Of a stretch of 64,000 nt of DNA, positions 13,068 to 28,704 are shown one piece after another (the first letter of the stretch is position 1; each line of letters begins with the position of its first letter). The notes below the pieces were generated by a model. It was not told where the DNA came from, searched no databases, and worked only from the letters and a program-made list of their open reading frames with translations. Source of the DNA: Myxococcales bacterium. GTDB lineage: Bacteria > Myxococcota_A > Polyangia > Palsa-1104. Location of the stretch: assembly GCA_028287105.1 (NCBI GenBank), contig JAQBQH010000073.1, forward strand, positions 1,963 to 65,962. Reading direction: 5' to 3'. Made by a program: the position numbers and the translations under genes.

Positions 13068-13077
13068 GACGCCTCCT

Positions 13078-15246
13078 TCACAGGAGCTTGTCGAGCGTGA
13101 TGGGCAGATCGCGAATGCGGCGGCCGGTGGCGTGGTAGACGGCGTTGGCGACAGCCGCGGCCATGCCGGTAATCCCGATCTCGCCCACGCCCTTGACTCC
13201 GATCTCGTTGACGTAGGGATCGTCTTCGGGGACGAAGAGGACGTCGATCGCCGGGATGTCCAGATTCACCGGCACGAGATACTCCGAGAGATCGTTGTTC
13301 ATGATTCGACCGAGCTTCGGGTCGTAGACGGTGTTCTCGTGAAGCGCCATGCTGATCCCCCAGATCATGCCGCCCAGCAACTGGCTGCGCGCCGTCTTGG
13401 CGTTCAGGATGCGCCCGGCGGCGAACGCGCCGACCGCGCGGCTGACCCGTACCTCGCCCAGCTCCGGGTCGACGCGCACCTCGACGAACTGGGCGCCGAA
13501 GGCCCGCATGGCGTAGCGGTCGCGCGTCTCCAGCTGCTTGGCGTCGTAACGCGCCTCGATGCGCTTCATACCGTGACGAGCGAGCTGCGCCGCGAACGGC
13601 TCGTCGACGGACGGATCGGCTCCGCCGCCATTGCCAAGCCGCGCCAACTTCTCACGCGCGCCGAGGCACGCCTGATGAACCGCCGATCCCACGCTGGCCG
13701 CGGTGCACGAGCCGCCCGAGGTCGGCGTCTCCGGCATGTCGGTGTCGCCCAGCTCGAAGCGGACCTTCTCGACGGGGAGCCCGAGCGCGTCCGCCGCGAC
13801 CTGGGTCATGACGGTGTACGTGCCGGTGCCGATGTCCTGCGTGCCCGCGCGCACCAGCGCCGTCCCGTCGGCGAACAGCGTCGCGATGGCCGAGGCGGGC
13901 CGCACGTTGGCGGGATAGGTGGCGGTGGCCATGCCCCAGCCGACGAGGAGCTTGCCGTCGACCATCGAGCGCGGCTGCGGTTTCTTGCGCGACCACCCGA
14001 ACTTCTCCGCCGCCGTCTGGTAGCACTGGCGCAGCGACTTGGACGACCACGGTCGCCCCGTCTCCGGATCGGTCTCGGCGTAATTGCGCAGCCGCAGCTC
14101 CAGCGGATCGATGGCGAGCTTGACGGCGAGCTCGTCGAGCGCCGACTCGAGCGCGAAGGTGCCGGTCACTTCGCCGGGCGCGCGCATCTGGCACGGCGTG
14201 GCGATGTCGAGCGACACCACGCGCTCGGTCGTGTCGAGGTTGGGGCACTTGTAGAGCGCGCGCGTCGGCGCGGTGAAGTGCTCGCAGAACTGATCGAACT
14301 GCGATACCGACGAGCGGCCCTCGTGCCGGATGGCCGCGAGCACGCCGTCGCGACCGGCGCCGATGACGACGCGCTGCTCGATCTGCGGCCGCGCACCGAC
14401 GGGCCCGAACATCTGCGGGCGCGACAGCACCAGCTTGACCGGACGTCCGACCTTTTGCGCCGCCATGGCCGCGAGCGGGACGTGCGACCACACCGCGCCC
14501 TTGGTTCCGAAGCCGCCGCCGATGTAATGCGAGATTACGCGCACGTTCTCGCGCGGCAGACCGAGCGACGCGGCCAGCTTGCGCTGATCCTCGAAGACGC
14601 CCTGGGTCGAGTCGTAGACGGTCAGGTGCGTGGGACCGTGCCACACCGCGATGGTGGCGTGCGGCTCCATCGGATTGTGGGTCTCGGCGGGGATCGTGTA
14701 GACCTCCTCGACGCGCACCGCTGCCGCCGCCAGCGCGGCCGCGACGTCGCCGCGCCGCGACTCGACGGGCAGCGTTTGCGCGACGGTCCCATGGTACGGC
14801 GGATGCGGCGCCCGTGCGGCTGTGCGCGTTCGCAGGAGGTCGACGTCGACGGGCGCGGCTTCGTAACGGACCGCGACCAGGTGGGCCGCGTGCTGGGCTC
14901 GTTCGAACGTGTCGGCGACCACGATGGCGATCGGCTGCCGGTTGTACAGAACGTGGTCGTCCTGCAACAGCTGCAGCACGTGATCGCCCTGCGAGGCCCG
15001 GGTCTCGCGCGTCGGCTGCGGCGGCAAGTGCATCGCGTTCTTGTGCGTGATCACGGCGAGCACGCCGGGCGCACGCTCGGCCTTGCCGGTGTCCATGCCG
15101 GTGATGCGCCCGCGCGCGATGGTGCTGAGGACCAGCACGGCGTGGGCGACGCGGGCCACGGGGACCTCCGCCGCGTAGCGCGCGCCGCCGGTGACCTTGA
15201 GCGGTCCGTCGACGCGGTCGACGGGAGGCCCGATCTTTTTCATCAC
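13078..15246 (-). CDS. Molybdopterin-binding large subunit of an aldehyde oxidoreductase / xanthine dehydrogenase-family enzyme (PaoC / CoxL-like).
   Basis: 722 aa. Ald_Xan_dh_C and molybdopterin-binding domain signatures (GGGFGTK, AVGEIGI-type C-terminal motif). Start is GTGATG. The ATG at 15241-15243 overlaps the upstream stop as ATGA. Confidence 0.85.
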   Translation of the reverse strand: MMKKIGPPVDRVDGPLKVTGGARYAAEVPVARVAHAVLVLSTIARGRITGMDTGKAERAPGVLAVITHKNAMHLPPQPTRETRASQGDHVLQLLQDDHVLYNRQPIAIVVADTFERAQHAAHLVAVRYEAAPVDVDLLRTRTAARAPHPPYHGTVAQTLPVESRRGDVAAALAAAAVRVEEVYTIPAETHNPMEPHATIAVWHGPTHLTVYDSTQGVFEDQRKLAASLGLPRENVRVISHYIGGGFGTKGAVWSHVPLAAMAAQKVGRPVKLVLSRPQMFGPVGARPQIEQRVVIGAGRDGVLAAIRHEGRSSVSQFDQFCEHFTAPTRALYKCPNLDTTERVVSLDIATPCQMRAPGEVTGTFALESALDELAVKLAIDPLELRLRNYAETDPETGRPWSSKSLRQCYQTAAEKFGWSRKKPQPRSMVDGKLLVGWGMATATYPANVRPASAIATLFADGTALVRAGTQDIGTGTYTVMTQVAADALGLPVEKVRFELGDTDMPETPTSGGSCTAASVGSAVHQACLGAREKLARLGNGGGADPSVDEPFAAQLARHGMKRIEARYDAKQLETRDRYAMRAFGAQFVEVRVDPELGEVRVSRAVGAFAAGRILNAKTARSQLLGGMIWGISMALHENTVYDPKLGRIMNNDLSEYLVPVNLDIPAIDVLFVPEDDPYVNEIGVKGVGEIGITGMAAAVANAVYHATGRRIRDLPITLDKLL

Positions 15247-16226
15247 GAGGCACCTCGGATCGTCGACAGCGCCCGCACCACCGCGCGTCGGGTCAGCTCC
15301 ACCTTGAACGCGTTGTGCGGCCGCGTCCGCGCCCCGCGAACCGTCTCTGCGGCGGCGAGCGTGAACGTCGCGCGGTTGGCGGGCTTACCGACGAGCGCCT
15401 GTTCGGCTTCGACGGCACGCCAGGGCTTGGTGCCGACGCCGCCCAGCGCGATGCGCGCGCCGCGGATGAGGTTGCCCTCGATGCGCAGCGCCGCGGCGAC
15501 TGCGCTGAGCGCGAAGGCGTAGGACGCCCGGTCGCGGATCTTGAGGTAGCGCGATTGTCGGAGGCCCGTCGGCGGGGGCAACGAGACGGCCGTGATCAGC
15601 TCGCCGTGCTGAAGGACGCTCTCGATCTCGGGGTGATCCCCCGGCAGACGATGGAATTCAGCGAACGGGATGTGCCGCTCGCCCCCCGGACCCTGCGTGT
15701 GCACGACGGCGTCGAGCGCCGCCAGGGCGACGCACATATCGGAGGCGTGCGTCGCGATGCAGTGATCGCTGGTGCCGAGGATCGCGTGGTTGCGGTTGTA
15801 GCCGTCGATGGCGGCGCAGCCGGAGCCGGGGTTGCGCTTGTTGCACGCCGTCGAGGGATCTCGATAGTAGTAGCAGCGCGTTCGCTGCAAGAGGTTGCCG
15901 CCGACGGTGGCCATGTTGCGGATCTGCGGGCTGGCGCCCGAGAGCAGCGCCTCCGACAAGAGCGGATAGCGCGCGGCGATCTCGGGGTGAAGAGCGAGAT
16001 CGCTGTTGCGCACCATCGATCCGATGCGCGCGCCGTCGTTGGATACCTCGATCTTCGTCAGTGGGATCGCGTTGACGTCGACGAGCTGCGCGAAGTTGAG
16101 CACCTCGAGCTTCATGAGATCGAGGAGCGAGGTGCCGCCGGCCAGGTAGGTGGCGTCGGTGTCGGCCTGCAGCGCGCGGATGGCCGGCCCCTCGGCAGCG
16201 ACTGAAAGATAACGGATCTCGCGCAT
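15243..16226 (-). CDS. FAD-binding medium subunit (PaoB / CoxM-like, FAD_binding_5 + CO_deh_flav_C).
   Basis: Real start is MREIRYLSVAAEG... (ATG ~16224-16226). The longer 682-aa ORF is an upstream read-through. Motif AGGTSLLDLMKL. Confidence 0.8.
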   Translation of the reverse strand: MREIRYLSVAAEGPAIRALQADTDATYLAGGTSLLDLMKLEVLNFAQLVDVNAIPLTKIEVSNDGARIGSMVRNSDLALHPEIAARYPLLSEALLSGASPQIRNMATVGGNLLQRTRCYYYRDPSTACNKRNPGSGCAAIDGYNRNHAILGTSDHCIATHASDMCVALAALDAVVHTQGPGGERHIPFAEFHRLPGDHPEIESVLQHGELITAVSLPPPTGLRQSRYLKIRDRASYAFALSAVAAALRIEGNLIRGARIALGGVGTKPWRAVEAEQALVGKPANRATFTLAAAETVRGARTRPHNAFKVELTRRAVVRALSTIRGAS

Positions 16227-16228
16227 GG

Positions 16229-17257
16229 CTACCCCTTCCCCATGACCGACGTGATGGCGGCGACGATGTTCGGATAGGCAGCGCAGCGGCAGAGGTTCCC
16301 GCTCATCTGTTCGCGAACATCGGATTCGGAGCGGACGCGGCCTTCCTCGAGCATCGCCACCGCCGACATGATCTGCCCCGGCGTGCAGTAGCCGCACTGG
16401 AAGGCGTCGTGCGCGACAAAGGCCGCCTGCATCCGATGCAGGCCGTTGCCATTGGCGAGGCCTTCGATGGTCGTGATCGGCTGCGTCTGGTGCATGATCG
16501 CCAGCGTCAAGCACGAGTCGATGCGGCGACCGCCCACCAGCACGGTGCAGGCGCCGCACTGGCCGTGATCGCAGCCCTTCTTCGTTCCGGTGAGGCCGAG
16601 CTGCTCGCGCAGCGCATCGAGCAGGGTCACGCGCGGCTCGACGTCGAGCTTGTGGGTGACCCCGTTGACCTGCAACGTGATGCTCGTCGTGGCGCCGGTG
16701 GGCGCCGGCGGCGCGGGCGAGCGCGCCCACCCGAGCCGTTCCAAGAACACGACCGAGAGCACGCCCGCCAGCGAGGTCACGATCATCTCGCGACGGTTGA
16801 AGAGCGGCTGCGCGGCGCTCGACGCCTCCTGGCGCAGCGTCGCGGCCCGGCGCAGCGCGGCGAGCAGCTCTTCGGTGTCGTCGGTGCCGGCGGAGGTGGC
16901 GATCTGTTGCCAGACGACGGCTTCGTCGCCGTCGACGACGAACAGGCCGAGCGGGTGAGCGCCGTCTGCGCCAGGTTTTACGCCGAAGTGCGCGAAGAGC
17001 GCGTCCGTCCCGCCGTCGCCCACCAGCTCGAGCGTCTCGACGTCGTCGTCGGGCGCCAACAGGGCGATCGTCTCGCGCGTGATGACGATCAGCGCCGCGC
17101 CGAGGCTGCGCAGCTCGCCGCGAAACTGGTCGCGCCGCGCTTCGAGATCGAGCCGGGATGCGAAGGCGATGAGGGTCGGGCGCCCGCGTACGTCGTGCAG
17201 CGAGACGAGACGGCCACGAGCATCGCGGAGCGGGAACGAGCGCACGCTTGAGTCCAC
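16229..17257 (-). CDS. [2Fe-2S] small subunit (PaoA / CoxS-like) carrying an in-frame ~150-aa N-terminal thioredoxin-fold (AhpC/TSA-like, Cys-less) extension and an internal Tat-signal-like segment.
   Basis: C-terminal 160 aa has both 2Fe-2S motifs (GCDHGQCGACTV; CGYCTPGQIMSA). Residues 153-185 (FNRREMIVTSLAGVLSVVFLERLGWARSPAPPAP) parallel the E. coli PaoA (YagT) Tat signal. The upstream 150 aa have strong GC3 and no stop. No alternative start codon lies between residues 140 and 157. Confidence 0.7.
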   Translation of the reverse strand: MDSSVRSFPLRDARGRLVSLHDVRGRPTLIAFASRLDLEARRDQFRGELRSLGAALIVITRETIALLAPDDDVETLELVGDGGTDALFAHFGVKPGADGAHPLGLFVVDGDEAVVWQQIATSAGTDDTEELLAALRRAATLRQEASSAAQPLFNRREMIVTSLAGVLSVVFLERLGWARSPAPPAPTGATTSITLQVNGVTHKLDVEPRVTLLDALREQLGLTGTKKGCDHGQCGACTVLVGGRRIDSCLTLAIMHQTQPITTIEGLANGNGLHRMQAAFVAHDAFQCGYCTPGQIMSAVAMLEEGRVRSESDVREQMSGNLCRCAAYPNIVAAITSVMGKG

Positions 17258-17356
17258 ACCAGCCAGTTATGCGCCGCCACGGTGCGCGCAATCAGGCGCC
17301 GCGAGTACCGCCTCCCGGAATGCGGGTTGCACGAGCTCAATCGAAGGAGGTCCGTG

Positions 17357-17920
17357 ATGAAATCGCGAATCGCGTGCTTGGCGGTAGGGGTGGGGGCGTT
17401 GGCGCTGGCTGGTGCTGCGAGCGCGCAGCAGCAAGAGGAGCAGCCGCAGACACGGCAGCCGTCGAGCCAGCCGGGCAATCTGGCGCCGGCCGATCGACAG
17501 TTCCTCCAACAGGCGTACAGCATCAACCAGGGGGAGGTGAAGCTGGGCGAGGTCGCAAAGCGCAAGGGCACGACGGACGAGGTGAAGAACTACGGTCAGC
17601 TCATGATGTCCGATCACACCCTGGCGCTGAAGGAGCTCCACCAGTTTGCGGACAAGGCGAACGCCAAGGTCCCGAGCCAACTGCTCCCCGAGCAGCAGCG
17701 TGCGTATGAGCAGATGTCGAAGCTCTCCGGCGCGGAATTCGACAAGGCCTATATCGACCACATGGTCACCGGACACGAGGCCGCGATTGGCGCCTTCAGC
17801 AAGGAGGCGCAGTTCGGAAAGAATCCGGTGCTGAAGGATTACGCGCAGAAGACGCTTCCGATGTTGCAGTCGCACGAAGGCATCGCGAAGTTCGATCAGT
17901 CTCACCCGAACGAGCCGTGA
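17357..17920 (+). CDS. DUF4142-family periplasmic protein.
   Basis: RBS GAAGGAGG. Signal peptide MKSRIACLAVGVGALALAGAASA. Paired DUF4142 helical repeats (LGEVAKRKGTTDEVKNYGQLMMSDH...; DKAYIDHMVTGHEAAIGAF). Confidence 0.7.
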   Translation: MKSRIACLAVGVGALALAGAASAQQQEEQPQTRQPSSQPGNLAPADRQFLQQAYSINQGEVKLGEVAKRKGTTDEVKNYGQLMMSDHTLALKELHQFADKANAKVPSQLLPEQQRAYEQMSKLSGAEFDKAYIDHMVTGHEAAIGAFSKEAQFGKNPVLKDYAQKTLPMLQSHEGIAKFDQSHPNEP

Positions 17921-18438
17921 GCCGCTCGGCTCCGACGCACGCGATGGCGGAGCAGCCGTTCGCGCCAGACAAAGAGCAGGATGCAGAGCGGCGGCAACGC
18001 CAGCGGCGGCCACTGCGCCAAGAACGGCGGCGGTGCCGACCCGACCGGCAGCTCACACGAGACCGTCGCGCTATCGCTTTGGTGTCGTACCGCGATGGTG
18101 AGCTGCCATGTGCCGGGGGCGGGCAGCTCGAGGAGCGCGGCCTGCAGGAGGCGGTTGCTTGCGGCGGCGTGGGACGGCGCCAGCATGCGCGTCGTTCCAT
18201 CGGGCGCGCGAACGCGCAGCTCTACCGTCGCGTCGAGCAGCACCGCGGCGGCGGCGCCACGCTCCAGCACCAGCACGCTCACTTCGGCGCTGCCGACGCG
18301 TAGCGGCTCGGGCGCGGTGAACAGGGCGATCACGAACGGGCCGGCCGCCCGCGTCAGGCGCAGCGTTCCGCCGTCGGCGAACGCGGGTGCTTCCGACTGC
18401 AAGAGAAGAGCGGCGAGCAGGATCGCCCGCCACCTCAC
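17902..18438 (-). CDS. Small periplasmic protein with C-terminal membrane anchor; possibly FixH / YtkA-like. Follows the CtaG-CcoG gene with a GTGA overlap.
   Basis: GTG start overlapping the upstream TGA stop. Signal peptide VRWRAILLAALLLQSEAPAFA. Beta-rich periplasmic domain (GTWQLTIAVRHQ), then a hydrophobic C-terminal helix and basic tail. The family assignment is a guess from genomic context. Confidence 0.45.
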   Translation of the reverse strand: MRWRAILLAALLLQSEAPAFADGGTLRLTRAAGPFVIALFTAPEPLRVGSAEVSVLVLERGAAAAVLLDATVELRVRAPDGTTRMLAPSHAAASNRLLQAALLELPAPGTWQLTIAVRHQSDSATVSCELPVGSAPPPFLAQWPPLALPPLCILLFVWRERLLRHRVRRSRAAHGSFG

Positions 18439-20645
18439 GTCGACATCCCGCGCATCTGCATCGGCGAAAGAAGGGTCCACACCCCCACGACCCACAGCGC
18501 GGCGGCGAAGGCTGCGAAGGGTAGATATCGCGGCGGTGTGCGCGCGATCTTCCAGCCGACGTACAGAGAGGCCAAGAGCCCGCCGTCGAGCAACAGCAGC
18601 TCGACGCTGACGAGTCGATCGGGTGCCACGCCCGCGCAGGCGAGCGACCACTGGGGATCGCCGAAGCGGAGCAGCCGTTGGACGACCGGCCATAGTGAGC
18701 GCCAACCCGTGGCCAGGTGAAACGCGAGATGCGCGGCCCACATGCCCATCCCGAGCGGTACCAGCGCCAGCGCGAGCCGGCAGAAGAGCGCGCGGCCGAG
18801 CGCCTTCCGGCCCGCCGCCAACAGCGCCGACGCGATCAGGAGGCCGACGAGGACGAGGCGCGCGGGCTGGGTCGAGCGGACCATGATCGCCGCGGTGCCG
18901 AAGGCGGCGATCACGACGACCAGTGCCAGGAGCGCCACGTCGAGCCGCTGCGACAAGCGGCCGAGGGAGGCGACGCCGTGGTCACGCATGAGGAGGCGGC
19001 CGGGCGCGACGGCTACGAGGCCGATGTTGTCGTGCGGACACGCCTTGACGCAGTCGAGACAGAAGGTGCAGTCGAGGTTGCCCACCTTGCGCGGCAGATA
19101 GAGGTCGAGCTCGCAGCCGCGCTGCCCTGCGTTGCCGCGCAGGCAGTCCTTGGTGTCACAGTCGGCGCAAACGACCGGCAGGCGCACCTTGACCTCGAGC
19201 GGCGAGAGGAGCGAGCCCACGAACTGGAGCTGGCCTACCGGGCAGACGTATTTGCAGAAGCTGGCGCCGCGCACCAACGAGTCGATCGCGAACGCGGCCA
19301 GGAAGTACGCGATCACCAGCATGGCGGTGGCGCGCGGCGAGTCCCACCAGCCGAACCATTCCTGGGCGACGAAGAAGGCGGCCAGGAGCCCGACGGCGAG
19401 CCATTTTCCGCGCAGCGCCCGCGGCCAGGTCCTCGTCGCCTGGCCGAAGCGCCGGCCGAGCTCGCGCGGCAGCGTGAACGGACACGCCATGCAGAAGAAG
19501 TTGCCGGTGGTGAGGAGCGCGACCACGGTGAGCGCGCGCCACCAGATCCACGGCACGATACCCGCCAGGTTCATCGGCGCTGCCCGTGGCCCATGCAGCC
19601 CGTCGACGATCACCAGGATCGCAACGGCCAGGCTCGCGGTCTGCAGCAGGCGACGGCCGTGGCGCGCGCGCAAGAGCCAACCCACCATCGGTGCGCGCAG
19701 AAGGTCGAATTGCTTGGGCGGCATGATCGCAGTCGAAGCCGCGCTCGGGCGCGCTCGGGCGGCCGCGGGCGGTGAGAGCCAGCGAACGCACAGCACGATC
19801 GCCGGCGCGAGAAACACGAGCGAGCCGGGGACCCACATGATCACGCCGGCGGCGATCTGGTCGTCGAGCGCCGCCATGTCGAACAGCCGCGGCACCGTCA
19901 GATACGACGCGTACAGGACGCGATCGGAGAACACGAGCAGCGCCGCGAGCGCGCTGTTCTGCAGGTCCGCCAGCAAGAGGCACGGTAGGATCGCCCAGCG
20001 CGGCTTGCGCGCGCTCATCACGGGCCACCAAAACAGCAGCGCTGCGCCGAAGAAGCTGGCGTGCTCGAGCCGATGCCACGCCGGCGAGCGCAGCGCCAAC
20101 TCGTAGCTCCGCGGCACGTGCCAGGCCCAGGTCGACGCCGAGAGCACGACCAACCCGACGAACGGACGCCGAAGCGCGCGCGCGATCCGGGCGAGCGCCG
20201 GCGACGCGAGAAACGGCCCCAGCAGCTCGCGCGCCAGCGACGGCGGCAGCCCACGCAATGACGCCCGCGCCGGCGCGCCGAGCAACAGTAGCGGCGGCGC
20301 GATGGCGAGCAACAGCAGATGCTGCACCATGTGCGCGCTGAGCAGAAACCGCGCGAGCGCGTCGATGGGAGAAGCCACCGCCAGCGTGAGCGCGCCGAGA
20401 CCAGCGACGAACGCGTAGAGCCGCCACGCCGGCCAACGGAGCCGACGCCAGCCGCGTGTGTAGACGATGGCCGCCGCGACCAGACCACCGGCGAGGCCCG
20501 GCGGAAACGACCAGGACGAAAGCAGCGCGCGCGCGACGCCCGACACGCGCGTCCTAGCGGCCCGGCGAAGCCGCGTTCCGGCCGGGCGAAGCCGCGCTCG
20601 GCGGGAGCGCTGCCTCGGCAGGATTGCGCGCAGGCGAGAGCCCAT
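18435..20645 (-). CDS. Fusion membrane protein: caa3-type cytochrome oxidase assembly factor CtaG / CopD-like N-terminal domain + polyferredoxin CcoG/FixG/NapH-like C-terminal domain.
   Basis: N-terminal ~300 aa carry HMVQHLLLLAIAPPLLLLG (Caa3_CtaG/CopD signature) and multiple TM helices. C-terminal ~430 aa carry CMACPF, CKYVCPVGQ and CTFCLDCVKACP (4Fe-4S ferredoxin motifs within membrane helices, as in CcoG/NapH). The true start is probably an internal GTG/ATG, because the first ~30 codons overlap the cytochrome b gene. Confidence 0.75.
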   Translation of the reverse strand: MGSRLRAILPRQRSRRARLRPAGTRLRRAARTRVSGVARALLSSWSFPPGLAGGLVAAAIVYTRGWRRLRWPAWRLYAFVAGLGALTLAVASPIDALARFLLSAHMVQHLLLLAIAPPLLLLGAPARASLRGLPPSLARELLGPFLASPALARIARALRRPFVGLVVLSASTWAWHVPRSYELALRSPAWHRLEHASFFGAALLFWWPVMSARKPRWAILPCLLLADLQNSALAALLVFSDRVLYASYLTVPRLFDMAALDDQIAAGVIMWVPGSLVFLAPAIVLCVRWLSPPAAARARPSAASTAIMPPKQFDLLRAPMVGWLLRARHGRRLLQTASLAVAILVIVDGLHGPRAAPMNLAGIVPWIWWRALTVVALLTTGNFFCMACPFTLPRELGRRFGQATRTWPRALRGKWLAVGLLAAFFVAQEWFGWWDSPRATAMLVIAYFLAAFAIDSLVRGASFCKYVCPVGQLQFVGSLLSPLEVKVRLPVVCADCDTKDCLRGNAGQRGCELDLYLPRKVGNLDCTFCLDCVKACPHDNIGLVAVAPGRLLMRDHGVASLGRLSQRLDVALLALVVVIAAFGTAAIMVRSTQPARLVLVGLLIASALLAAGRKALGRALFCRLALALVPLGMGMWAAHLAFHLATGWRSLWPVVQRLLRFGDPQWSLACAGVAPDRLVSVELLLLDGGLLASLYVGWKIARTPPRYLPFAAFAAALWVVGVWTLLSPMQMRGMST

Positions 20646-22071
20646 CTCCTCGCAGCGTCTCGAGGAACGACACCAGCGCCGTCACCTCGGGCGGGCTCAA
20701 GTTCTTTCCGTAGGCAGGCATGTTGCCGCCGCCCTGCAGCACCTGGCGGATCAGCTCGTCCACTGTGAGCCGCGACGCCACCTCGTCGAGCGCCGGGCCG
20801 CGCCGCCCCCCCATGCTGTCGAGCGCGTGGCAGTTGCGGCACTGCTTGTTTTGCAGCACCAGCGCGCCCTGTCGCTCGAGCGGCGAGCGCCCCTCGAGGT
20901 AGCGCGCCGGCACCGGGGCGCCGCTCCATGCGTTGGCGACCGGCGACCACGGCGTCGTCTGGCCCAGCCGGGTGAGCGCCGCGAACGAGACGCCGACCAG
21001 GAGCACGGTCAAGACGGCGAGCGGCCGCCGCCGCCAGCTCTTCTCGCCGAAGCCGGAGAGGAGCGGCAAGACGAAGAGGACCCCAATCCCGATCACCGGC
21101 GCCGTCAGGAGCAGCGGCGTCTCCAGGTTGCGCGGCAGCAAGGAGAGCGCGGCGTAGAGCCAGAGGAAGAAGAAGTCGGGCCGCGGCGTCGTTTGGATGA
21201 TCGTCGGATTGGGCGGCCCCGACGGGCCGAACGGTCCGAACAGCGCCGCGCAGCCCAGCACCGCCAGCACCGCCAAACCCGCGGCGACCAGATCGCGCTG
21301 GAAGGCATCGGGCACGAACGGGATGCCGTCCTTCTGCACCAGCTCTTCGTAGTCGTGCAGGTAGCGGTCGCGCGTGACCAGCCGCCCCGGCATGGGCCAC
21401 TCGTTGATGCCGAGCGTGAGCACCATGAGCACGTGCAGCCCGGCGAGCGCGAGCAGCAGACCCGGCACGATGAACACGTGCAGCGAGAAGAAATGCGACA
21501 GCGTGTCGCCGGCGATGATCGGTCCGCCGAGGAGCAGGTGCACCAGGCGCGCCCCGACGAGTGGCACGCGGCCCATGATCGAAGCGCCGATGCCGAGTCC
21601 CCAGTAGGCGTCCTGGTCGAAGCGCAGTACCTGCCCGGTGAACGCCATCCCGAGCGTGAGCAGGAGTAGCAGGACGCCGGTCATCCAGGTCAGCTCGCGC
21701 GGATACTTGAACGCGCCGAAGAGGAAGACCTGCACCATGTGAATGAGGACCAGCGCGACCATGAACGTCGAGCCCCAGCCATGCACCGCGCGCAGGAACC
21801 AGCCGCCGGGCTCGTCGTGGTTGAGCGTCTGCAAGCTGTTCCACGCCTCCGCCGCCGACGGGACGTACGAGAAGGCGAGCACGACGCCGGTGACGATCTG
21901 CAAGAGGAACAGCACGAAGGTGACGCTGCCGAACACGTAGAACCAGCTCGCCGTCGAGCGCGGTACGCGGTGGCGGGCCACCTCACGGATGGTGTCGGCG
22001 AGCTGCAGACGGCGATCGAGCCAGGCACCGAGGGCGCGAATCAGGCGCACGACGACCCCGCAGGGGGACAT
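20554..22071 (-). CDS. Cytochrome b subunit of a bc-type complex (b6 + subunit-IV-like) with a fused C-terminal mono-heme cytochrome c domain.
   Basis: Eight-plus TM helices with conserved His pairs (FMVALVLIHMVQVF; HFFSLHVFIVPG). PEWY-like region. C-terminal CRNCH heme-binding site plus a downstream Met ligand (GGNMPAYG). Confidence 0.8.
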   Translation of the reverse strand: MSPCGVVVRLIRALGAWLDRRLQLADTIREVARHRVPRSTASWFYVFGSVTFVLFLLQIVTGVVLAFSYVPSAAEAWNSLQTLNHDEPGGWFLRAVHGWGSTFMVALVLIHMVQVFLFGAFKYPRELTWMTGVLLLLLTLGMAFTGQVLRFDQDAYWGLGIGASIMGRVPLVGARLVHLLLGGPIIAGDTLSHFFSLHVFIVPGLLLALAGLHVLMVLTLGINEWPMPGRLVTRDRYLHDYEELVQKDGIPFVPDAFQRDLVAAGLAVLAVLGCAALFGPFGPSGPPNPTIIQTTPRPDFFFLWLYAALSLLPRNLETPLLLTAPVIGIGVLFVLPLLSGFGEKSWRRRPLAVLTVLLVGVSFAALTRLGQTTPWSPVANAWSGAPVPARYLEGRSPLERQGALVLQNKQCRNCHALDSMGGRRGPALDEVASRLTVDELIRQVLQGGGNMPAYGKNLSPPEVTALVSFLETLRGDGLSPARNPAEAALPPSAASPGRNAASPGR

Positions 22072-22670
22072 TCGCGACGCGCGGACTCCGACAGCGTCGG
22101 CAACCGGCCGGCGAGGATGACGAGCGCGCCGCGTTCAATCTTGTGGCGGTACTGCCACAGGCCGCGCGGCGGCGGACCGCCTGCGAGCGAGCCGTCCTCG
22201 TAGTAGACCCCACCATGGCAGGGGCACAAGAACAGGGCCGACTGGGCGAACCAGCGCACCGGACAGCCGAGGTGCGCGCAGTTGATCGCGAACACCTGGA
22301 ACTGATTGCCGCGGATGTGCCGCACCCAGCAGGGGATGTCGGCGGTCTCGCCGTCCCATGGGTGCCGGAACGGGTTGGTGAACGTCGCCAACCTCGTCTG
22401 TCCCTCGGGGAACTGCTCGAGCGGCCCGAGCGTGACCCACGCCTGGTCGGAGCGCATCGCTTGCTTGCGCGCGGGCGCGAGGAGGTAGCGCACCACCGGC
22501 GTGAGAAGAAGCGCCGCCGCCGCGCCGTTGATGAGAAGGCCCAGCCGGAGCAGCATGCCACGACGAGATGGGGGCCTTTCGTTCTCAGGTGAACGATCCA
22601 TGGCTCTTCTCCTCAGCGGCTGCGGGCATGGGGCCTCCCCGGAAATTCCTGGCGGTGCGAGATCAGCCAC
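22041..22670 (-). CDS. Rieske [2Fe-2S] iron-sulfur protein.
   Basis: CAHLGCPV ... CPCHGGVY boxes. N-terminal RR-containing TM/Tat-like anchor (SRRGMLLRLGLLINGAAAALLL). Confidence 0.8.
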   Translation of the reverse strand: MADLAPPGISGEAPCPQPLRRRAMDRSPENERPPSRRGMLLRLGLLINGAAAALLLTPVVRYLLAPARKQAMRSDQAWVTLGPLEQFPEGQTRLATFTNPFRHPWDGETADIPCWVRHIRGNQFQVFAINCAHLGCPVRWFAQSALFLCPCHGGVYYEDGSLAGGPPPRGLWQYRHKIERGALVILAGRLPTLSESARRECPPAGSSCA

Positions 22671-23338
22671 GCCACCACGTCGGCGATCTGTTGCGACGCG
22701 AGCGGACGGCCCGGCACGTCGCTGCGCCAGTCGGGTTGGCCGATCTCTGGCCGGCCGACGATCACCAGTGTGCGCAACGATTGAGCGCTCACGAGCGCGA
22801 GATAGGAGCCGTCGACGATGGAGCGCGACTTCGGCCCATCGCTGCCGTCGGAGCCGTGGCAGCTCGCGCAGAAGGTTGCGAACACGCCGGCGCCGCGTCG
22901 CGCCTCGCCGTCCGGACCGACGTAGGGCGGCGGCGTCTCCGAGAGCGTCTCGGCCCGCGCCCAGTGCGTGCGAATCCCGCGGGCGATGACGTCGACCTGA
23001 CGGTCGGTCAGCCCGCCGCCGGCGCTCTGGGCGAACGCCGGCATGCTGGTCCCTGCCACGCCGGTGGCGATGATCCGACGCAGGGTCTGGTCGTCGGCGA
23101 TCGCGAGATACACGACGTTGTCGAGGCCGAGCGCCGCGCCGCCGCGACCGTTCTCGCCGTGGCAGCCGGCGCAGCTCGACGCATAGAGCGCCGCGAAGTC
23201 CTCGACCTTCGACGGCTGTCCCTCGAGACTGACGCCCTTCGGCTGCCCCGGCAGCGTGCAGCCGCCGCCGCCCACAATAACGACGACGACGACGAAGGCG
23301 AGAGCCCCGACGACGACGATGGCCCGGGCGCGCGTCAT
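22613..23338 (-). CDS. Membrane-anchored diheme cytochrome c (QcrC / cytochrome cc-like).
   Basis: Real start is MTRARAIVVVGALAFVVVVVIVGGGGC (TM anchor). Two CxxCH sites (CAGCHG, CASCHG). The ATG overlaps the upstream stop as ATGA. The longer 522-aa ORF is read-through. Confidence 0.8.
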   Translation of the reverse strand: MTRARAIVVVGALAFVVVVVIVGGGGCTLPGQPKGVSLEGQPSKVEDFAALYASSCAGCHGENGRGGAALGLDNVVYLAIADDQTLRRIIATGVAGTSMPAFAQSAGGGLTDRQVDVIARGIRTHWARAETLSETPPPYVGPDGEARRGAGVFATFCASCHGSDGSDGPKSRSIVDGSYLALVSAQSLRTLVIVGRPEIGQPDWRSDVPGRPLASQQIADVVAWLISHRQEFPGRPHARSR

Positions 23339-24165
23339 GGCCGCCGGCCTGTTTCGAGGCCGATGCGCTCGGCGAACGGCTCGCTCTGGCGCGTGTGGAT
23401 GCGCAGGCTGCGCGACACCACCACGCCGGCCGCGAGGCCGAAGCCGATCTGCGAGACGAGGAACCAGCCCCAGTCGATTCGCCGGGCCAACACCGGATTG
23501 ATCATCCCGATGGTCGGATACAAGAGCGCCGACCACGCCAGCGGCGCCACCAGCCCACCGGCCAGCACTGGGCGGCGCGAGAACATCGGCAGCAGCATGC
23601 CGTAGAGCGTGCCGACGAGCAGCGACGTCACGCCGTGGATGAGCGTACCGAACAAGAGCGCCCAGCCGTCGAAGGCGCTCAGCTCCTCGGTGGTGGCCCT
23701 GAGCTCGGGCCTGTAAAACCCCGCGACCAGAATGTTGATCGGATACCAGACGCCATGGTGCGAGATGACGCCGTAGATGGCGGCGGTGAGCGCCATGACC
23801 ACGCCGCCGGCGATTCCGCCCTTGATGCCCGCGGAGACGGGAAAGATCTCGACCGGCAGCCGTGCGCGGTGCTCTCGCTCCGCGATGCGTGGGTGCGTCG
23901 TCGGAGGACGCGGCTCGATGCGCGGCTGCCCCTCGGGCTCGATCGGAATCCGGACGCTGCGCTCGACGGGCAGCACCACGCGGAACCAGCCGACTGCGCC
24001 GGCAACGAGCAGTACCGCGCCGAGCAGGCTCACCTCGCCCGCGGTCACCAGCCCGGCGCCCAGGAGCGTGGCGCCGAAGGCCATGGTGAGCGGCCAGGCC
24101 GTCGGCGCCGGCACCTCGATCTCTTCGGGGCCGCCCGTCGCTTCCGTGCGCTCCGTCGCCTCCAT
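23335..24165 (-). CDS. Hypothetical polytopic membrane protein (276 aa, ~6 TM) embedded in the oxidase/bc operon.
   Basis: Real start is MEATERTEATGG... The remainder of the 463-aa ORF is spurious. Hydrophobic helices (GATLLGAGLVTAGEVSLLGAVLLVAGAVGWF, GGIAGGVVMALTAAIYGVI, WALLFGTLIHGVTSLLVGTLYGMLLPMF and others). Start and stop are coupled to their neighbours by ATGA overlaps. No family recognised. Confidence 0.55.
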   Translation of the reverse strand: MEATERTEATGGPEEIEVPAPTAWPLTMAFGATLLGAGLVTAGEVSLLGAVLLVAGAVGWFRVVLPVERSVRIPIEPEGQPRIEPRPPTTHPRIAEREHRARLPVEIFPVSAGIKGGIAGGVVMALTAAIYGVISHHGVWYPINILVAGFYRPELRATTEELSAFDGWALLFGTLIHGVTSLLVGTLYGMLLPMFSRRPVLAGGLVAPLAWSALLYPTIGMINPVLARRIDWGWFLVSQIGFGLAAGVVVSRSLRIHTRQSEPFAERIGLETGRRP

Positions 24166-24170
24166 CGCCG

Positions 24171-24761
24171 TCACCGTCCAATCACGTAGACGACGCTGAA
24201 CACGACGATCCAGACGCAGTCGACGAAGTGCCAGTAGAGCGCGAGCACCTCGACGTGCTCGGTGTAGCGACGGTGCAGCTTGCCGAAGAGCGTGAGCATC
24301 AACACCGTCGTCAGAAGGACGAGCCCGACGGTCACGTGGAACGCGTGCAGCCCGACGAGCGAGTAGTAGGTCGTGCCGAACAGGTTGGTCGCCGGCGTGA
24401 GCCGCTCGTGGTGGACGAGCCGGGCCCACTCGCGGCCGGTGCCGGCGAGGAAGAGGGCACCCAGCGCCGCCGTGGCGCCCCACGCGACCGCGAACGTAGC
24501 CAGGCGTCCCCGGCGCAGCGCCCGCACGGCCCACGCGATGGTCCCGCTCGACGACAGGAGGCAGATGGTGTTCGCCACCGGCAGCGAGAGCGCCTGCTCG
24601 GGCGTCGGCCCGTAGGGGCTCTTTCCCAGATAGAACAGATACGCGACGACGAAGATGACGAACATCGCGCTCTCGGCGACGATGAAGCACACCATTCCGA
24701 CGCGATTGCGCGAGGGGAGCTCCCACCCGGCCTCGCCGGCGACGACGGCGGCTTGGTTCAT
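24171..24761 (-). CDS. ctaE: Cytochrome c oxidase subunit III.
   Basis: 196 aa from MNQAAVVAGEAGWELPSRNRVGMVCFIVAESAMFVIFVVAYLFYLG. Conserved subunit-III helices (ALYWHFVDCVWIVVFSVVYVIG). The ATG overlaps the ctaD stop (ATGA). The rest of the 729-aa ORF is a shadow. Confidence 0.8.
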   Translation of the reverse strand: MNQAAVVAGEAGWELPSRNRVGMVCFIVAESAMFVIFVVAYLFYLGKSPYGPTPEQALSLPVANTICLLSSSGTIAWAVRALRRGRLATFAVAWGATAALGALFLAGTGREWARLVHHERLTPATNLFGTTYYSLVGLHAFHVTVGLVLLTTVLMLTLFGKLHRRYTEHVEVLALYWHFVDCVWIVVFSVVYVIGR

Positions 24762-26455
24762 TCGTACACCCAGTCGGGATCTTCGGGATGCTTCAGATCC
24801 CACAACGGGCGCCGGCTGCGCACCGTCGGCACGACCGCGAAGTTGTATTCCGGCGGCGGCGACGACGTCGACCACTCGAGCGTCCACGCGTCCCACGGAT
24901 CGGGGCCCGCGAGCTTGCCCTTGTGCAGGCTGCGCACGAGGTTGACGAGGAAGCATGCGACGCCCGCGGCCTGGAAGAAGGCGCCGATGGTGATGACGAG
25001 GTTGAGGGTCTCCCAGCCCCGTCCCGGCTCGTAGGTGTAGATGCGGCGGGGCATGCCGAGCAGCCCCGGGATGTGCATCACGGTGAAGGTGAGATGGAAC
25101 CCGACCAGGAACAGCCAGAAATGCAGCTTGCCCAACTTCTCGTCGAGCATCCGACCCGTCACCTTGGGGAACCAGTAGTAGAAGGCGGCGAAGACGGTAA
25201 AGAGCAGCGACCCCACGAGCATGAAGTGGAAGTGCGCGACCACGAATGTGGAGTCGGTGAGCTGCCAGTTGAAGGGCACGGCCGCGAGCATGATCCCCGT
25301 CAGCCCGGCGATCAGGAACTGGCCGATGAACGCGATGCAAAACAGCATCGGTGTGGCCAGGCGGATCTTGCCGCCCCACATCGTGCCGATCCAGTTGAAG
25401 ATCTTGATCCCCGTCGGGATGCCGACCAGCAGCGTCGCGACCATGAAGAAGGTGTTCGCCGTCATCGACATCCCGACGGCAAACATGTGGTGCGCCCACA
25501 CGCTGAGGGAGACGAAGCCGATGGCGATCACCGCGCCGACGAGGACCGGGTAGCCGAAGATCGCCTTGCGCGAGAAGACCGGGATGATCTCGGAGGCGAA
25601 CGCCCAGCCGGGAATCATGAGGATGTAGACCTCGGGGTGGCCGAAGATCCAGAAGAAGTGCTGCCACAAGACGGCCGAGCCGCCGGCCTGGGTATCGAAG
25701 AAGTGGGCGCCGAGGAAACGATCGGCGAGCAGCATCAGCTGCGCCGCCGCCAGCGGCGGGACCCCAACCAGCACCAGCACCGAGTCGACGACGTAGAACC
25801 AACACAGAAGGGGCAGTTTGCCGAGCGTCATCCCAGGGCAGCGACGGCTGAGGACGGTGGTGATGATGTTGACGGCGGTCCCGATGGAGCCGACGCCGGA
25901 GAGGAAGATGGAGAGGATCCAGTAGTCCGTCGAGTGCCCGCGCGAAAACGCGCGCGAGGTCAGGGGCGCGTAGGCGAACCAGCCCACGTCGGGCGCACTG
26001 CCGGCGCCGTAGAGCCCCTCGGCGCCGAGAAAGCTGAAGTAGAGGAGGAGCCCGGCGAATGCGCTCATCCAGAAGCTGAACGCGTTGAGCCGGGGGAAGG
26101 CCATGTCGCGCGCACCGATCATGAGCGGCACGAGGTAGTTGGCGAAGCCGAAGATCAGCGGCATCCCGACGAAGAACACCATCGTCGTGCCGTGCAGCGT
26201 GAACAGTCGATTGAACGTCTGCGGCGCGAGCAGCGTATTGTGCGGCGCCACGAGCTGAAGCCGGATCAAGAGCGCCTCGCTGCCGCCGATGAGGAGGAAC
26301 AGGAGCGCGTAGAGCACGTACATCACGCCGAGGCGCTTGTGGTCGACGGTAACGATCCATTCGTGAAGCCGCTGCCAGAAGCGCGCCTCGACCTCGCGCG
26401 TCGTGACCGCGGCTTCGCCCGTCATGGCCGTCGTTCGTGGCGCTGGAACGCCCAT
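24758..26455 (-). CDS. ctaD: Cytochrome c oxidase subunit I (heme-copper oxidase catalytic subunit).
   Basis: 565 aa, 12+ TM helices. Ligand-bearing motifs (WFFGHPEVYILMIPGWA; HHMFAVGMS). Confidence 0.9.
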   Translation of the reverse strand: MGVPAPRTTAMTGEAAVTTREVEARFWQRLHEWIVTVDHKRLGVMYVLYALLFLLIGGSEALLIRLQLVAPHNTLLAPQTFNRLFTLHGTTMVFFVGMPLIFGFANYLVPLMIGARDMAFPRLNAFSFWMSAFAGLLLYFSFLGAEGLYGAGSAPDVGWFAYAPLTSRAFSRGHSTDYWILSIFLSGVGSIGTAVNIITTVLSRRCPGMTLGKLPLLCWFYVVDSVLVLVGVPPLAAAQLMLLADRFLGAHFFDTQAGGSAVLWQHFFWIFGHPEVYILMIPGWAFASEIIPVFSRKAIFGYPVLVGAVIAIGFVSLSVWAHHMFAVGMSMTANTFFMVATLLVGIPTGIKIFNWIGTMWGGKIRLATPMLFCIAFIGQFLIAGLTGIMLAAVPFNWQLTDSTFVVAHFHFMLVGSLLFTVFAAFYYWFPKVTGRMLDEKLGKLHFWLFLVGFHLTFTVMHIPGLLGMPRRIYTYEPGRGWETLNLVITIGAFFQAAGVACFLVNLVRSLHKGKLAGPDPWDAWTLEWSTSSPPPEYNFAVVPTVRSRRPLWDLKHPEDPDWVYE

Positions 26456-26474
26456 CGCTGCCTCTCTCTTCGTC

Positions 26475-27443
26475 TCAATGAAGCGTCAGGAGAAACTGGA
26501 CGAGTTGATCGATCTGTTGCTCGGTCAGCTTCATTGCCGGCATGTGCGCGCCCGGCTTGATGCCGTTGGGATCGCGAATCCAGGCACGCAACGTCTCCGG
26601 CGACAGCGGGGCGGCGCCCGCGGCGAGCGTCGCGCGGCTCATGAGGTGCGTGAGGTCCGGCCCGTATCGTCCGTTTCCGACGGTCCCTGCAACCGAGTGG
26701 CAGTTGATGCAGGCGTTGCTTTCGAACACGCGCCTGCCGGCTACCACCGCGTCCAGCTCGGACGGGACCTGCGGGTCGCCCTGCCTCTGCGCCTGCGCCC
26801 ATCGCTCGAACTCGTCGCGCGGGTGCACGTAGACGCGCAAGAGCATCTTGGCGTGCTGGGTGCCGCAGTACTCGGCGCACTGGCCCACGTAGACTCCCGG
26901 CGCGGTCGGCGCGATCCACATGTGATTGACGCGATTGGGAATGAGATCCGTCTTACCGGCGAGGCGCGGCACCCAGAAGCTGTGCGCGACGTCTGCCGAG
27001 AGCAGCGTGAGCCAGGTCGGCGTCGGCGCCAGTGGGTCCGAGACCGGCACGTGGAGCTCGTTGGCGGTCACGATTCCCAGCCCCGGATAGCGGAGCTCCC
27101 ACCACCACTGATGGCCGATCACGATGACGTCGATCGCGTTCGCCGGCCGCGTCACTCCCTGAATCGATTGAATGACTCGCGCCGTGGTGAGCGCGAGCAC
27201 CAGGACGATGAGGACGGGCACCACCGTCCACGCGGTTTCGAGCTGATTCGAGCCGTACACTTGCGGCGGCTCCCGTCCATCATCCGTGTCGCGGCGACGG
27301 AAGCGCACCACCGCAACGATGGTGAGGCCGAAGACGACGAAGAAGATGGCTCCGGTCACCGCGAGGACGAACAGCGATAGCTCGCTCGTCCGGCTCGCCG
27401 GTGCGGAGACTGCGGCGAATATATTGGCTGGCGCGTCCCCCAT
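26475..27443 (-). CDS. ctaC: Cytochrome c oxidase subunit II with fused C-terminal cytochrome c domain (caa3-type).
   Basis: Two N-terminal TM helices. CuA site VYVGQCAEYCGTQHAKM. C-terminal CINCHS (CxxCH) c-type heme domain. Confidence 0.85.
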   Translation of the reverse strand: MGDAPANIFAAVSAPASRTSELSLFVLAVTGAIFFVVFGLTIVAVVRFRRRDTDDGREPPQVYGSNQLETAWTVVPVLIVLVLALTTARVIQSIQGVTRPANAIDVIVIGHQWWWELRYPGLGIVTANELHVPVSDPLAPTPTWLTLLSADVAHSFWVPRLAGKTDLIPNRVNHMWIAPTAPGVYVGQCAEYCGTQHAKMLLRVYVHPRDEFERWAQAQRQGDPQVPSELDAVVAGRRVFESNACINCHSVAGTVGNGRYGPDLTHLMSRATLAAGAAPLSPETLRAWIRDPNGIKPGAHMPAMKLTEQQIDQLVQFLLTLH

Positions 27444-27582: not shown

Positions 27583-28704
27583 TCAGTATGTCGGTGTCGG
27601 TGTCGGCGTCGCTGTCGTCGTCGTCGGTGTCGCTGTCGTCGGTGTCGTCGTCGTCGGTGTTGCTGTTGCTGTCGTCGGTGTTGCTGTCGTCGCTGTCGCC
27701 GGCGTCCCCGCGTCCGCCGGCGTCGCCGTCCCGCCGCCGGACAGCGGCACCGTGAACAGGTCGTCCATCGCCTGCACCGACGCGCCCTGCGGGTTACACG
27801 GCAGCGTGTCGATTCCCAGAATGGTTTGCACCGTCTTCAAGAACGAGCTCGTGTCGTAGACGATCTTCGACTCGTAGCCCGGCTTCGCATTCGGCGAGAT
27901 GACAATGAACGGCGGATCGTCGCCGGTGGTGATACCGGCCGCCTGCCCCTCGTCCCACAAGAGGAAAAGCACGCCGCCCTTGTTGAACGCGTCGGAGCCG
28001 AGGATCTTCGGCACCTCGCGCGCCAGCCACTGATCGCCGGCGGCGATCGAGCCGTCGTGCATGTCGTTCTGCAGGTTCGGCGTGATGAACGCGTACCTGG
28101 GCAGCTTGCCCGCGGCCAGATCGGCGTCGAATTGCGAGTAGTCGACGATGTGGTCGGTGCAACGCTGGGTCACGTTCACCTTGGTGCCGTCCCAGCCGTT
28201 GATGTCGTCGAAATAGACGAATGGGTTGTGCTTGGCCGCGTAGTCGCCGTTCGAGCTCAGGCCGCATCCCGGCCCGAGGCTCTCCTGGTAGCTCTTCCAG
28301 CTCAGCCCGGCCGCCTCGAGCTGATCGGCCAGGTGCGACGCCGTGGCGATGTGGTTGGTCGCGCCCGGATCGTTGTCGTTGAGCACGCCGAAGTTCTCGC
28401 CGGCGACCATCCACAAGTAGTTCGGCTCGCTCGGGTGCACGTAGGAGTCGTGGTATGCCCCCGCCAGCGCGTTCTGCTTGATGAGCTGATTGATGAAGGG
28501 CGCACCGCCGTTGCCGCGAATCTGACCGAGGCCCTTGTTCTCCATGACAATGGTGAACACTGTTCCGCCCCAGTTGGGCGACGGCGACGCCTTGGTCGTG
28601 GTGAGCGCGCTGCAGGTGACCGCGGTGTTGCCGGAGGTGTTCTGACAACCGACGAGCGTGACCGCGAGAGCGATCTGCGGAACGAGGAGGGCGAGCTTCT
28701 TCAT
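27583..28704 (-). CDS. Phosphoesterase-family lipoprotein (phospholipase C / acid phosphatase AcpA-like, PF04185) with C-terminal Thr/Pro-rich tail.
   Basis: Real start is MKKLALLVPQIALAVTLVGC (lipobox). Motifs FTIVMENKG and HPSEPNYLWMVAGENFGV are typical of the family. The tail TPATATTATPTTATATPTTTTP is encoded by an imperfect GTCG/GTTG microsatellite-like tract. The upstream 174 codons of the 547-aa ORF are probably not translated. Confidence 0.7.
   Translation of the reverse strand: MKKLALLVPQIALAVTLVGCQNTSGNTAVTCSALTTTKASPSPNWGGTVFTIVMENKGLGQIRGNGGAPFINQLIKQNALAGAYHDSYVHPSEPNYLWMVAGENFGVLNDNDPGATNHIATASHLADQLEAAGLSWKSYQESLGPGCGLSSNGDYAAKHNPFVYFDDINGWDGTKVNVTQRCTDHIVDYSQFDADLAAGKLPRYAFITPNLQNDMHDGSIAAGDQWLAREVPKILGSDAFNKGGVLFLLWDEGQAAGITTGDDPPFIVISPNAKPGYESKIVYDTSSFLKTVQTILGIDTLPCNPQGASVQAMDDLFTVPLSGGGTATPADAGTPATATTATPTTATATPTTTTPTTATPTTTTATPTPTPTY

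Follow-up and report, generated by a model that had tools for sequence, protein, structure and literature searches.

The stretch of DNA analyzed here (the window, with its own numbering) comprises 64,000 nucleotides (nt) of contig JAQBQH010000073.1 (positions 1,963 to 65,962, forward strand) from a genome labeled Myxococcales bacterium (GenBank assembly GCA_028287105.1). Its minus strand carries, at 17902–27443, nine tightly packed genes in the order ctaC–ctaD–ctaE–g4–diheme cytochrome c–Rieske–cytochrome b/c–CtaG fusion–g9, identified from the sequence and from Pfam and NCBIfam matches. The G+C content of the window is about 69%. The nine genes form a conserved superoperon that encodes an entire quinol-to-oxygen respiratory branch, and on balance its two enzymes, a caa3 oxidase and a bc complex, most likely make up one physical supercomplex. 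There is very good support for a functional coupling of these two enzymes. That they also associate physically is plausible from the gene sequences, and the case for this is strengthened by g4, a membrane protein without a family, which is a candidate oxidase subunit and a possible bridge to the diheme cytochrome and the bc complex.

An earlier note, made from the sequence alone, had listed nine genes in this order and had read them as an operon for a caa3 oxidase and a bc complex, extended by genes for copper delivery. Gene number, order and strand were borne out by the sequence, and the functions by the Pfam and NCBIfam matches.

Results

Oxidase subunits

CtaC (26475–27443; 322 amino acids [aa], two transmembrane helices; Pfam COX2_TM, COX2, and Cytochrom_C) scores 177.8 bits against TIGR02866 CoxB (cutoff 147.7). 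The CuA motif, read from the sequence, is present (CAEYCGTQHAKM), and the cytochrome c domain (Cytochrom_C over residues 234–321) holds the heme site CINCH. CtaD (24758–26455; 565 aa) scores 695.5 bits against TIGR02891 (cutoff 670.75) and matches Pfam COX1 with E 5e-155. The glutamate motif GHPEV of helix VI separates A1 from A2 oxidases; CtaD has GHPEVY at this place (seen as FWIFGHPEVYILMIPG) and is therefore assigned to the A1 type. CtaE (24171–24761; 196 aa) matches Pfam COX3 with E 2.5e-20. Because the match covers only profile positions 77–257 of 258, CtaE is taken to be the short form without canonical helices 1 and 2; the hydropathy profile has about five helices. By its family matches and motifs, the oxidase is an A1-type heme-copper cytochrome c oxidase of the caa3 form.

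Cytochrome b and Rieske protein

Cytochrome b (20554–22071; 505 aa) combines in one polypeptide a b6-like N-terminal half, a fused half resembling subunit IV (seven helices in all) and a C-terminal monoheme cytochrome c (Pfam Cytochrome_B, Cytochrom_B_C, and C-terminal Cytochrome_CBB3; heme site CRNCH). Its best solved relatives are cytochromes b6 (E 1e-43); residues 16–223 align to b6 without gaps through helix D, across both heme-ligand helices and including the extra residue between the histidines of helix D. The curated b6 model NF002990 scores 194.9 bits (cutoff 325). Cys35 of b6 (heme ci; FYCLGG) is replaced by Val (FYVFGS), so the heme ci cysteine is absent. At the PEWY/PDWY position of the quinol oxidation (Qo) site, 96 of 120 homologues have PDFF, with PDYF and PDFY as minor variants; in the window PDFF lies at residues ~296–305 (21150–21190), and both aromatic positions differ from the canonical PEWY/PDWY.

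The Rieske iron-sulfur subunit (22041–22601; 186 aa) matches Pfam Rieske with E 2e-6; in NCBIfam, the models of b6f iron-sulfur subunits come closest, at 53 bits and below their cutoff. It has a twin-arginine N-terminus (SRRGML) and the cluster boxes CAHLGC and CPCHGG. Gly instead of Ser in Rieske box II goes with lower-potential, menaquinol-oxidizing enzymes. By these cluster boxes and the two His pairs in helices B and D of cytochrome b, the pair is assigned to the bc-type quinol oxidoreductases, with PDFF as a variant of the canonical Qo motif.

c-type cytochromes

The fifth gene product (g5; 22613–23338; 241 aa) is a diheme class I c-type cytochrome with heme sites CAGCH and CASCH (Pfam Cytochrome_CBB3 and Cytochrom_C, two matches each). 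Its signal peptide ends in Cys27. Nearly all g5 orthologues have a signal peptide ending in Cys and followed by xPGxP, and this Cys is invariant in the family alignment (A3); because it is conserved, g5 is a predicted lipoprotein. The earlier note had counted three distinct membrane-bound c-type domains, on CtaC, cytochrome b, and the diheme protein. The three proteins hold, and the count becomes four CxxCH sites (CINCH; CAGCH and CASCH; CRNCH). Of 120 homologues of cytochrome b, 119 retain its CxxCH site. Elsewhere in the window, beyond the operon, no CxxCH protein is encoded.

A specific relation of the diheme protein to actinobacterial QcrC, a point raised in the earlier note, is not upheld. 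The A3 profile matches CcoP with E 1e-14 and, over its full length, QcrC chains with E 5e-10 to 8e-7. The protein thus resembles CcoP no less than it does QcrC, and orthology with QcrC was rejected. As judged by these profile matches, the relation of g5 to QcrC is general diheme class I homology only.

The membrane protein g4

As a single sequence, g4 (23335–24165; 276 aa) has no match in Pfam, NCBIfam, or the PDB. Its family comprises 1834 cluster representatives at 50% identity. The protein consists of an N-terminal hairpin (residues ~13–67) and a domain of four to five helices (residues ~100–260), in which His177 is invariant among 25 close relatives; its AlphaFold2 (AF2) model has a predicted local distance difference test (pLDDT) score of 81.

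In a profile built from the 25 relatives, residues 13–67 align to helices 1 and 2 of mouse COX3. A more diverse profile of the hairpin only matches the N-termini of COX3 from mouse, sheep, human, and yeast (E 0.0014, 0.012, 0.18, and 1.9, respectively) and the C-terminal helices of subunit I of the Bacillus aa3-600 oxidase (QoxB; E 0.027). The C-terminal hairpin of Pfam Cyt_c_ox_IV (PF12270, actinobacterial CtaF) is matched weakly by 20 of the 25 members (best 1.4e-4); the window protein itself reaches E 3.2, and one distant member (P0269) 26.8 bits (cutoff 26.9). The hairpin and its matches have a motif in common, P-x-P-(T/S)-x-W-P-L ... G-L-V ... W-(F/W)-R-x-V. The similarity is credible mainly because independent weak matches converge on one structural element, which is exactly the pair of helices (1 and 2) that the 5-helix CtaE lacks.

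In some distant members of the family, g4 and the diheme cytochrome are joined in one polypeptide; one such fusion is encoded between genes for a 5-helix COX3 and a Rieske protein. In another case (locus L087, 32–2448) the fusion gene adjoins a Rieske gene, and the upstream DNA is cut off by the start of the contig. In its product (P0280; 625 aa), zinc-ribbon-like N-terminal repeats are combined with the g4 domain and with the diheme cytochrome; no cytochrome b follows the Rieske gene on that strand. A metagenome scan for the context of one fusion (P0313) yielded nothing useful; an exact-sequence look-up was successful. The topology of such fusions would be consistent: with six helices the C-terminus of g4 would lie on the inside, and what had been the signal peptide would carry the cytochrome domain to the outside. 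The likeness of the hairpin to helices 1 and 2 of subunit III and to CtaF, as suggested by these profile comparisons, and the g4–diheme fusions are new here. So are the predicted lipid anchor of g5 and its likeness to CcoP, the description of cytochrome b as b6-like with PDFF and without the heme ci cysteine, and the NapH/MauN-like and YtkA-like labels for the CtaG partner domain and the last gene product.

Conservation and lineage

Species-representative genomes were scanned with the g4 alignment, and 84 related loci, mostly from Acidobacteriota, were then compared. Relatives of g4 are encoded in at least 566 of these genomes, mostly Acidobacteriota. The order ctaC–ctaD–ctaE–g4–diheme–Rieske–cytochrome b–CtaG is kept in all 84 loci wherever the contig is long enough, and none is split; the question of splitting in relatives, raised in the earlier note, is thus answered for the first eight genes. 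Three relatives that were looked up singly show this order too. These eight genes of the window correspond gene for gene to the loci of Terriglobia. Cytochrome b has thousands of relatives at ~70% identity, and those with a name are from Terriglobia.

Together with one other locus (L004), the window forms a separate lineage of 70% G+C that is 57–62% identical to all other loci (median G+C 57%); the operon proteins are about equally distant, in the same range, from every sampled lineage but L004. The nearest g4 relative, that of L004, is labeled 'Polyangia bacterium' at NCBI, and the next-nearest operons are all from Acidobacteriota. The Myxococcales label beside such neighbors could reflect mislabeling, horizontal transfer, or a distinct lineage.

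Gene junctions and operon borders

The earlier note had described nearly every junction as an overlap of 1–4 nt. Tight packing stands, but the description goes too far, as overlaps of that kind were found at only three of the eight junctions: ctaD|ctaE (ATGA), g4|g5 (ATGA), and g8|g9 (GTGA), each of 4 nt. Rieske and cytochrome b overlap by 31 nt if the annotated ATG (22071) is used and by 10 nt from GTG 22050, which is probably the start because the closest relative (L004) starts there. The remaining junctions are gaps of 19 nt (ctaC|ctaD), 5 nt (ctaE|g4), 11 nt (diheme|Rieske), and 7 nt (cytochrome b|CtaG); in the first of these, behind the ctaC stop, a Shine–Dalgarno-like stretch (AGAGAGAGG) precedes the ctaD start. 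Across the loci, counted with a start-codon heuristic that prefers short gaps, the tightest junctions are g4|g5 (overlapping in 74 of 81), g5|Rieske (53 of 73), and Rieske|cytochrome b (68 of 71); the ctaC|ctaD gap exceeds 15 nt in 48 of 63. A scan of the locus for sigma-70 promoters gave none, and terminator-like hairpins were located inside genes; the scan was uninformative.

The flanks are unrelated to the operon. Upstream lies a gene of the phosphoesterase family (PF04185; 27583–29226, minus strand), the product of which ends in a long low-complexity tail rich in Thr, Pro, and Ala, encoded by ACC/GAC-rich repeated DNA (~27590–27700). Downstream, a convergent gene for a secreted DUF4142 protein (17282–17920, plus strand) overlaps the 3' end of g9 with its own 3' end by 19 nt. 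It is followed by a cluster of the xanthine-dehydrogenase/CO-dehydrogenase family (11940–17257, minus strand; XdhC and the molybdopterin large, FAD, and 2Fe-2S small subunits); the N-terminal ~180 residues of the 2Fe-2S subunit are without a Pfam match.

Copper and assembly genes

The eighth gene (g8; 18435–20546, GTG start at 20546) encodes a fusion. Residues ~1–280 match Pfam Caa3_CtaG (E 9e-55), a putative CuB insertion factor; residues ~283–703 resemble a membrane polyferredoxin of the NapH/MauN type, with the Cys clusters CMACP, CKYVCP, CADCDTKDC, and CTFCLDCVKACP. The earlier note had called this partner domain CcoG. The label was dropped: the window protein has no match to the CcoG model TIGR02745, a relative (L041) matches it weakly (18.8 bits, cutoff 316.7), and the NapH/MauN model TIGR02163 scores best.

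The last gene product, g9 (17902–18438; 178 aa), has no Pfam or NCBIfam hit at default thresholds. Its signal peptide is followed by a beta-sandwich that resembles YtkA and, at the C-terminal end, by a membrane helix. The fold class given in the earlier note ('FixH-like') is roughly right, and YtkA-like is the better label: PF13115 YtkA is found in 16 of 24 family members (best 1e-7) and FixH (PF05751) in 6 of 24. The window protein itself matches YtkA with E 0.02 (16 bits, cutoff 25.9), and a homologue from Solibacter bears the UniRef name 'YtkA-like'. In a fold search with the AF2 model (pLDDT 89), copper-binding CrdA was the best solved fold (template modeling [TM] score 0.78, E 6e-5), followed by FetP/P19. 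On the strength of this model, g9 is a candidate periplasmic copper-handling partner of g8.

The CtaG–ferredoxin fusion, together with g9, occurs in only 4 of the 84 loci (L004, L023, L041, and L083). In one of these (L023, 13527–16790) a separate open reading frame of 326 aa, which may be a second, stand-alone CtaG, appears to lie between cytochrome b and the long fusion.

Discussion

Proposed electron path and assembly

In the proposed branch, menaquinol would be oxidized at the Qo site and electrons would pass over the Rieske [2Fe-2S] cluster to the cytochrome c domain on cytochrome b. From there they would move over the two hemes of the lipoprotein to the c domain of CtaC and on to CuA, heme a, heme a3/CuB, and oxygen. 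Because all four c hemes are membrane-tethered, no soluble carrier would be needed. In Mycobacterium smegmatis, CtaE and CtaF together make up subunit III, CtaF supplying helices 1 and 2, and with QcrB they form the interface of complexes III and IV; in the supercomplex of alternative complex III (ACIII) and oxidase, the contact is made by a 5-helix subunit III (PMC8361435). Like CtaF in mycobacteria, g4 would complete the split subunit III, and it would hold the diheme cytochrome beside the oxidase, at the surface where complex III is bound in the known supercomplexes. If g4 has these two tasks, the enzymes are most likely physically associated.

CtaG has been proposed to insert CuB in Bacillus, where YtkA is CtaK, a lipoprotein for CuA assembly (PMC9145763). 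By analogy, the CtaG part of g8 would insert CuB and g9 would pass copper on in the periplasm as CtaK does; the NapH-like ferredoxin of g8 may reduce Cu(II) to Cu(I) in the manner of CcoG.

Several points weigh against this picture. The association of the subunits in the carriers of the operon is predicted from genes, and the succession of the four c hemes in the electron path is an assumption. For the g4 hairpin the similarities are low (E no better than 0.0014; Pfam narrowly below cutoff), a Foldseek search with the whole g4 model gave no significant match, and for the C-terminal domain there was no PDB hit even at E 10, the only matches being weak ones to DUF6789 and DUF1440. As to the copper module, the ferredoxin part of g8 scores far below every family cutoff (best TIGR02163, ~31 bits against 213; E about 6e-8 to 2e-7), and the g9 family alignment has no invariant His, Met, or Cys for copper binding. 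According to Trojan et al. (2021, PMC8407424), cultured Acidobacteria with the operon have other oxidases too; electrons from the bc complex may therefore also go to acceptors other than the caa3 oxidase.

Alternative explanations

Two other readings of the locus were weighed. The oxidase and the bc complex could be co-regulated but separate enzymes, the operon serving only to match their expression, with the diheme lipoprotein shuttling along the membrane like the c550/c551 cytochromes of Bacillus and g4 as a fourth oxidase subunit. Lipid-anchored, shuttling c cytochromes are established in Gram-positive bacteria (PMC8361435), the branched chains of the carriers include other oxidases that also need a bc complex, and a stable contact is not demanded by any feature of the sequences; the longer spacing of the oxidase genes (ctaC|ctaD above 15 nt in most loci) points the same way. 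The coupling of g4 to the diheme cytochrome, which is translational here and a fusion in some lineages, argues for a cytochrome tethered to an oxidase subunit and thereby kept from free diffusion. The order of oxidase before bc genes is moreover invariant over the 84 loci at an identity of only 57–62%, and a 5-helix CtaE with a CtaF-like partner is the architecture seen at interfaces of complexes III and IV. We regard separate enzymes as a possibility to be taken seriously, though a rather doubtful one.

The remaining reading places g4 in the bc complex, as an accessory membrane subunit, comparable to the small additional subunits of other bacterial bc complexes, that anchors the diheme cytochrome as a QcrC-like equivalent of c1, the hairpin likeness being a chance effect of composition. 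The tightest coupling is indeed that of g4, g5, Rieske, and cytochrome b, the diheme profile aligns with actinobacterial QcrC over the full length, and the fusion in L087 adjoins a Rieske gene at a truncated contig start; marginal hairpin E-values and the insignificant search with the whole model would also fit. Chance is difficult to reconcile with the convergence of two profiles in two libraries on helices 1 and 2 of COX3 (four species), the C-terminal helices of QoxB, and the C-terminal hairpin of CtaF, and the shared motif is sequence-specific beyond hydrophobicity. CtaE lacks exactly these two helices, and cytochrome b already has its own c domain at the position equivalent to c1. We consider a place of g4 in the bc complex improbable.

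The supercomplex of bc complex and caa3 oxidase, which we prefer, can be framed more boldly, as a third architectural type of bacterial III–IV supercomplex beside bcc–aa3 and ACIII–aa3. g4 would be the bridge, its hairpin completing subunit III and its 4–5-helix domain docking the b6-like cytochrome b and holding the diheme lipoprotein, so as to give a fixed wire of four c hemes from Rieske to CuA. This extension is put forward tentatively, as quite possible rather than probable.

Significance

The operon is found mainly in Terriglobia, and its carriers rank with the most abundant bacteria of soil; respiration at oxygen levels as low as nanomolar has been reported for their caa3 oxidases. If the branch is hard-wired via g4 and the diheme lipoprotein, this would help to explain how electrons are delivered efficiently although no soluble carrier takes part, and there would be a new supercomplex design to compare with the mycobacterial drug target. 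Of practical value is that a widespread and unannotated protein family is given a concrete role that can be tested.

Comparison with known systems

The earlier note had drawn a parallel with the actinobacterial bcc–aa3 supercomplex (ctaE–qcrCAB, ctaC–ctaF, ctaD). The parallel holds in the order ctaE–diheme c–Rieske–cytochrome b, and it goes further than the note had it, in a 5-helix CtaE accompanied by a separate protein that would supply the equivalent of helices 1 and 2 of subunit III. It holds too in a diheme cytochrome c as link, and in a probably menaquinol-type Rieske protein (CPCHGG) and a Qo motif of the PD type. It does not extend to membership of the bcc family, which was rejected for the locus (QcrA 22 against 275 bits, QcrB 133 against 500, QcrC 34 against 200). 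In the window, cytochrome b is b6-like with fused subunit IV and a c heme of its own, the oxidase is a caa3 enzyme whose CtaC brings an additional c heme, a predicted lipid anchor takes the place of a C-terminal helix anchor in the diheme protein, the CtaF-like hairpin bears an additional domain of four to five helices, and all genes are in one operon.

With QcrABC and CtaCDEFG of Bacillus and Geobacillus PS3, the locus has in common that cytochrome b is b6-like, that the part resembling subunit IV is followed by a cytochrome c domain, and that all c hemes are membrane-bound; it also shares a caa3 oxidase, Caa3_CtaG, and a candidate protein of the YtkA/CtaK type, and a bc–caa3 supercomplex has been isolated from PS3 (PMC8361435). 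It differs in a cytochrome b that is one polypeptide without the heme ci cysteine and with the Qo motif PDFF, in the addition of the diheme lipoprotein and g4, and in the joining of everything in one operon. The ACIII–aa3 system of Flavobacterium johnsoniae likewise has adjacent genes for a complex III-type enzyme and an oxidase, and a 5-helix subunit III, which makes the contact there (PMC8361435); its quinol oxidase module is ACIII, not Rieske/cytochrome b, and it lacks a g4-type protein. Kao & Hunte (2014) described cytochrome b clades, in Acidobacteria among others, whose members end in a class I cytochrome c, as the window protein does; the string PDFF, typical of the window family, is absent from the main text of that paper.

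No paper on such a complex and no solved structure of one was found. The operon type and the idea of a supercomplex are already published for soil Acidobacteria; the proposal of the earlier note is sound, and it is not new. Trojan et al. (2021, mSystems, PMC8407424) described an acidobacterial 'bc1-A1 caa3 superoperon' with consistent synteny across strains, reported expression and co-expression of its genes, and proposed respiratory supercomplexes that bypass soluble carriers; g4, the diheme lipoprotein, and CtaG are not discussed in their main text. In the window as in that superoperon, the bc genes are immediately preceded by the A1 caa3 genes, all on one strand. The window locus therefore joins this published operon type, from which it stands apart as a distinct high-G+C lineage (a separate 70%-G+C clade, 57–62% identical to the versions of Terriglobia) with the minority ending of a CtaG–ferredoxin fusion and a YtkA-like protein, found in 4 of 84 loci.

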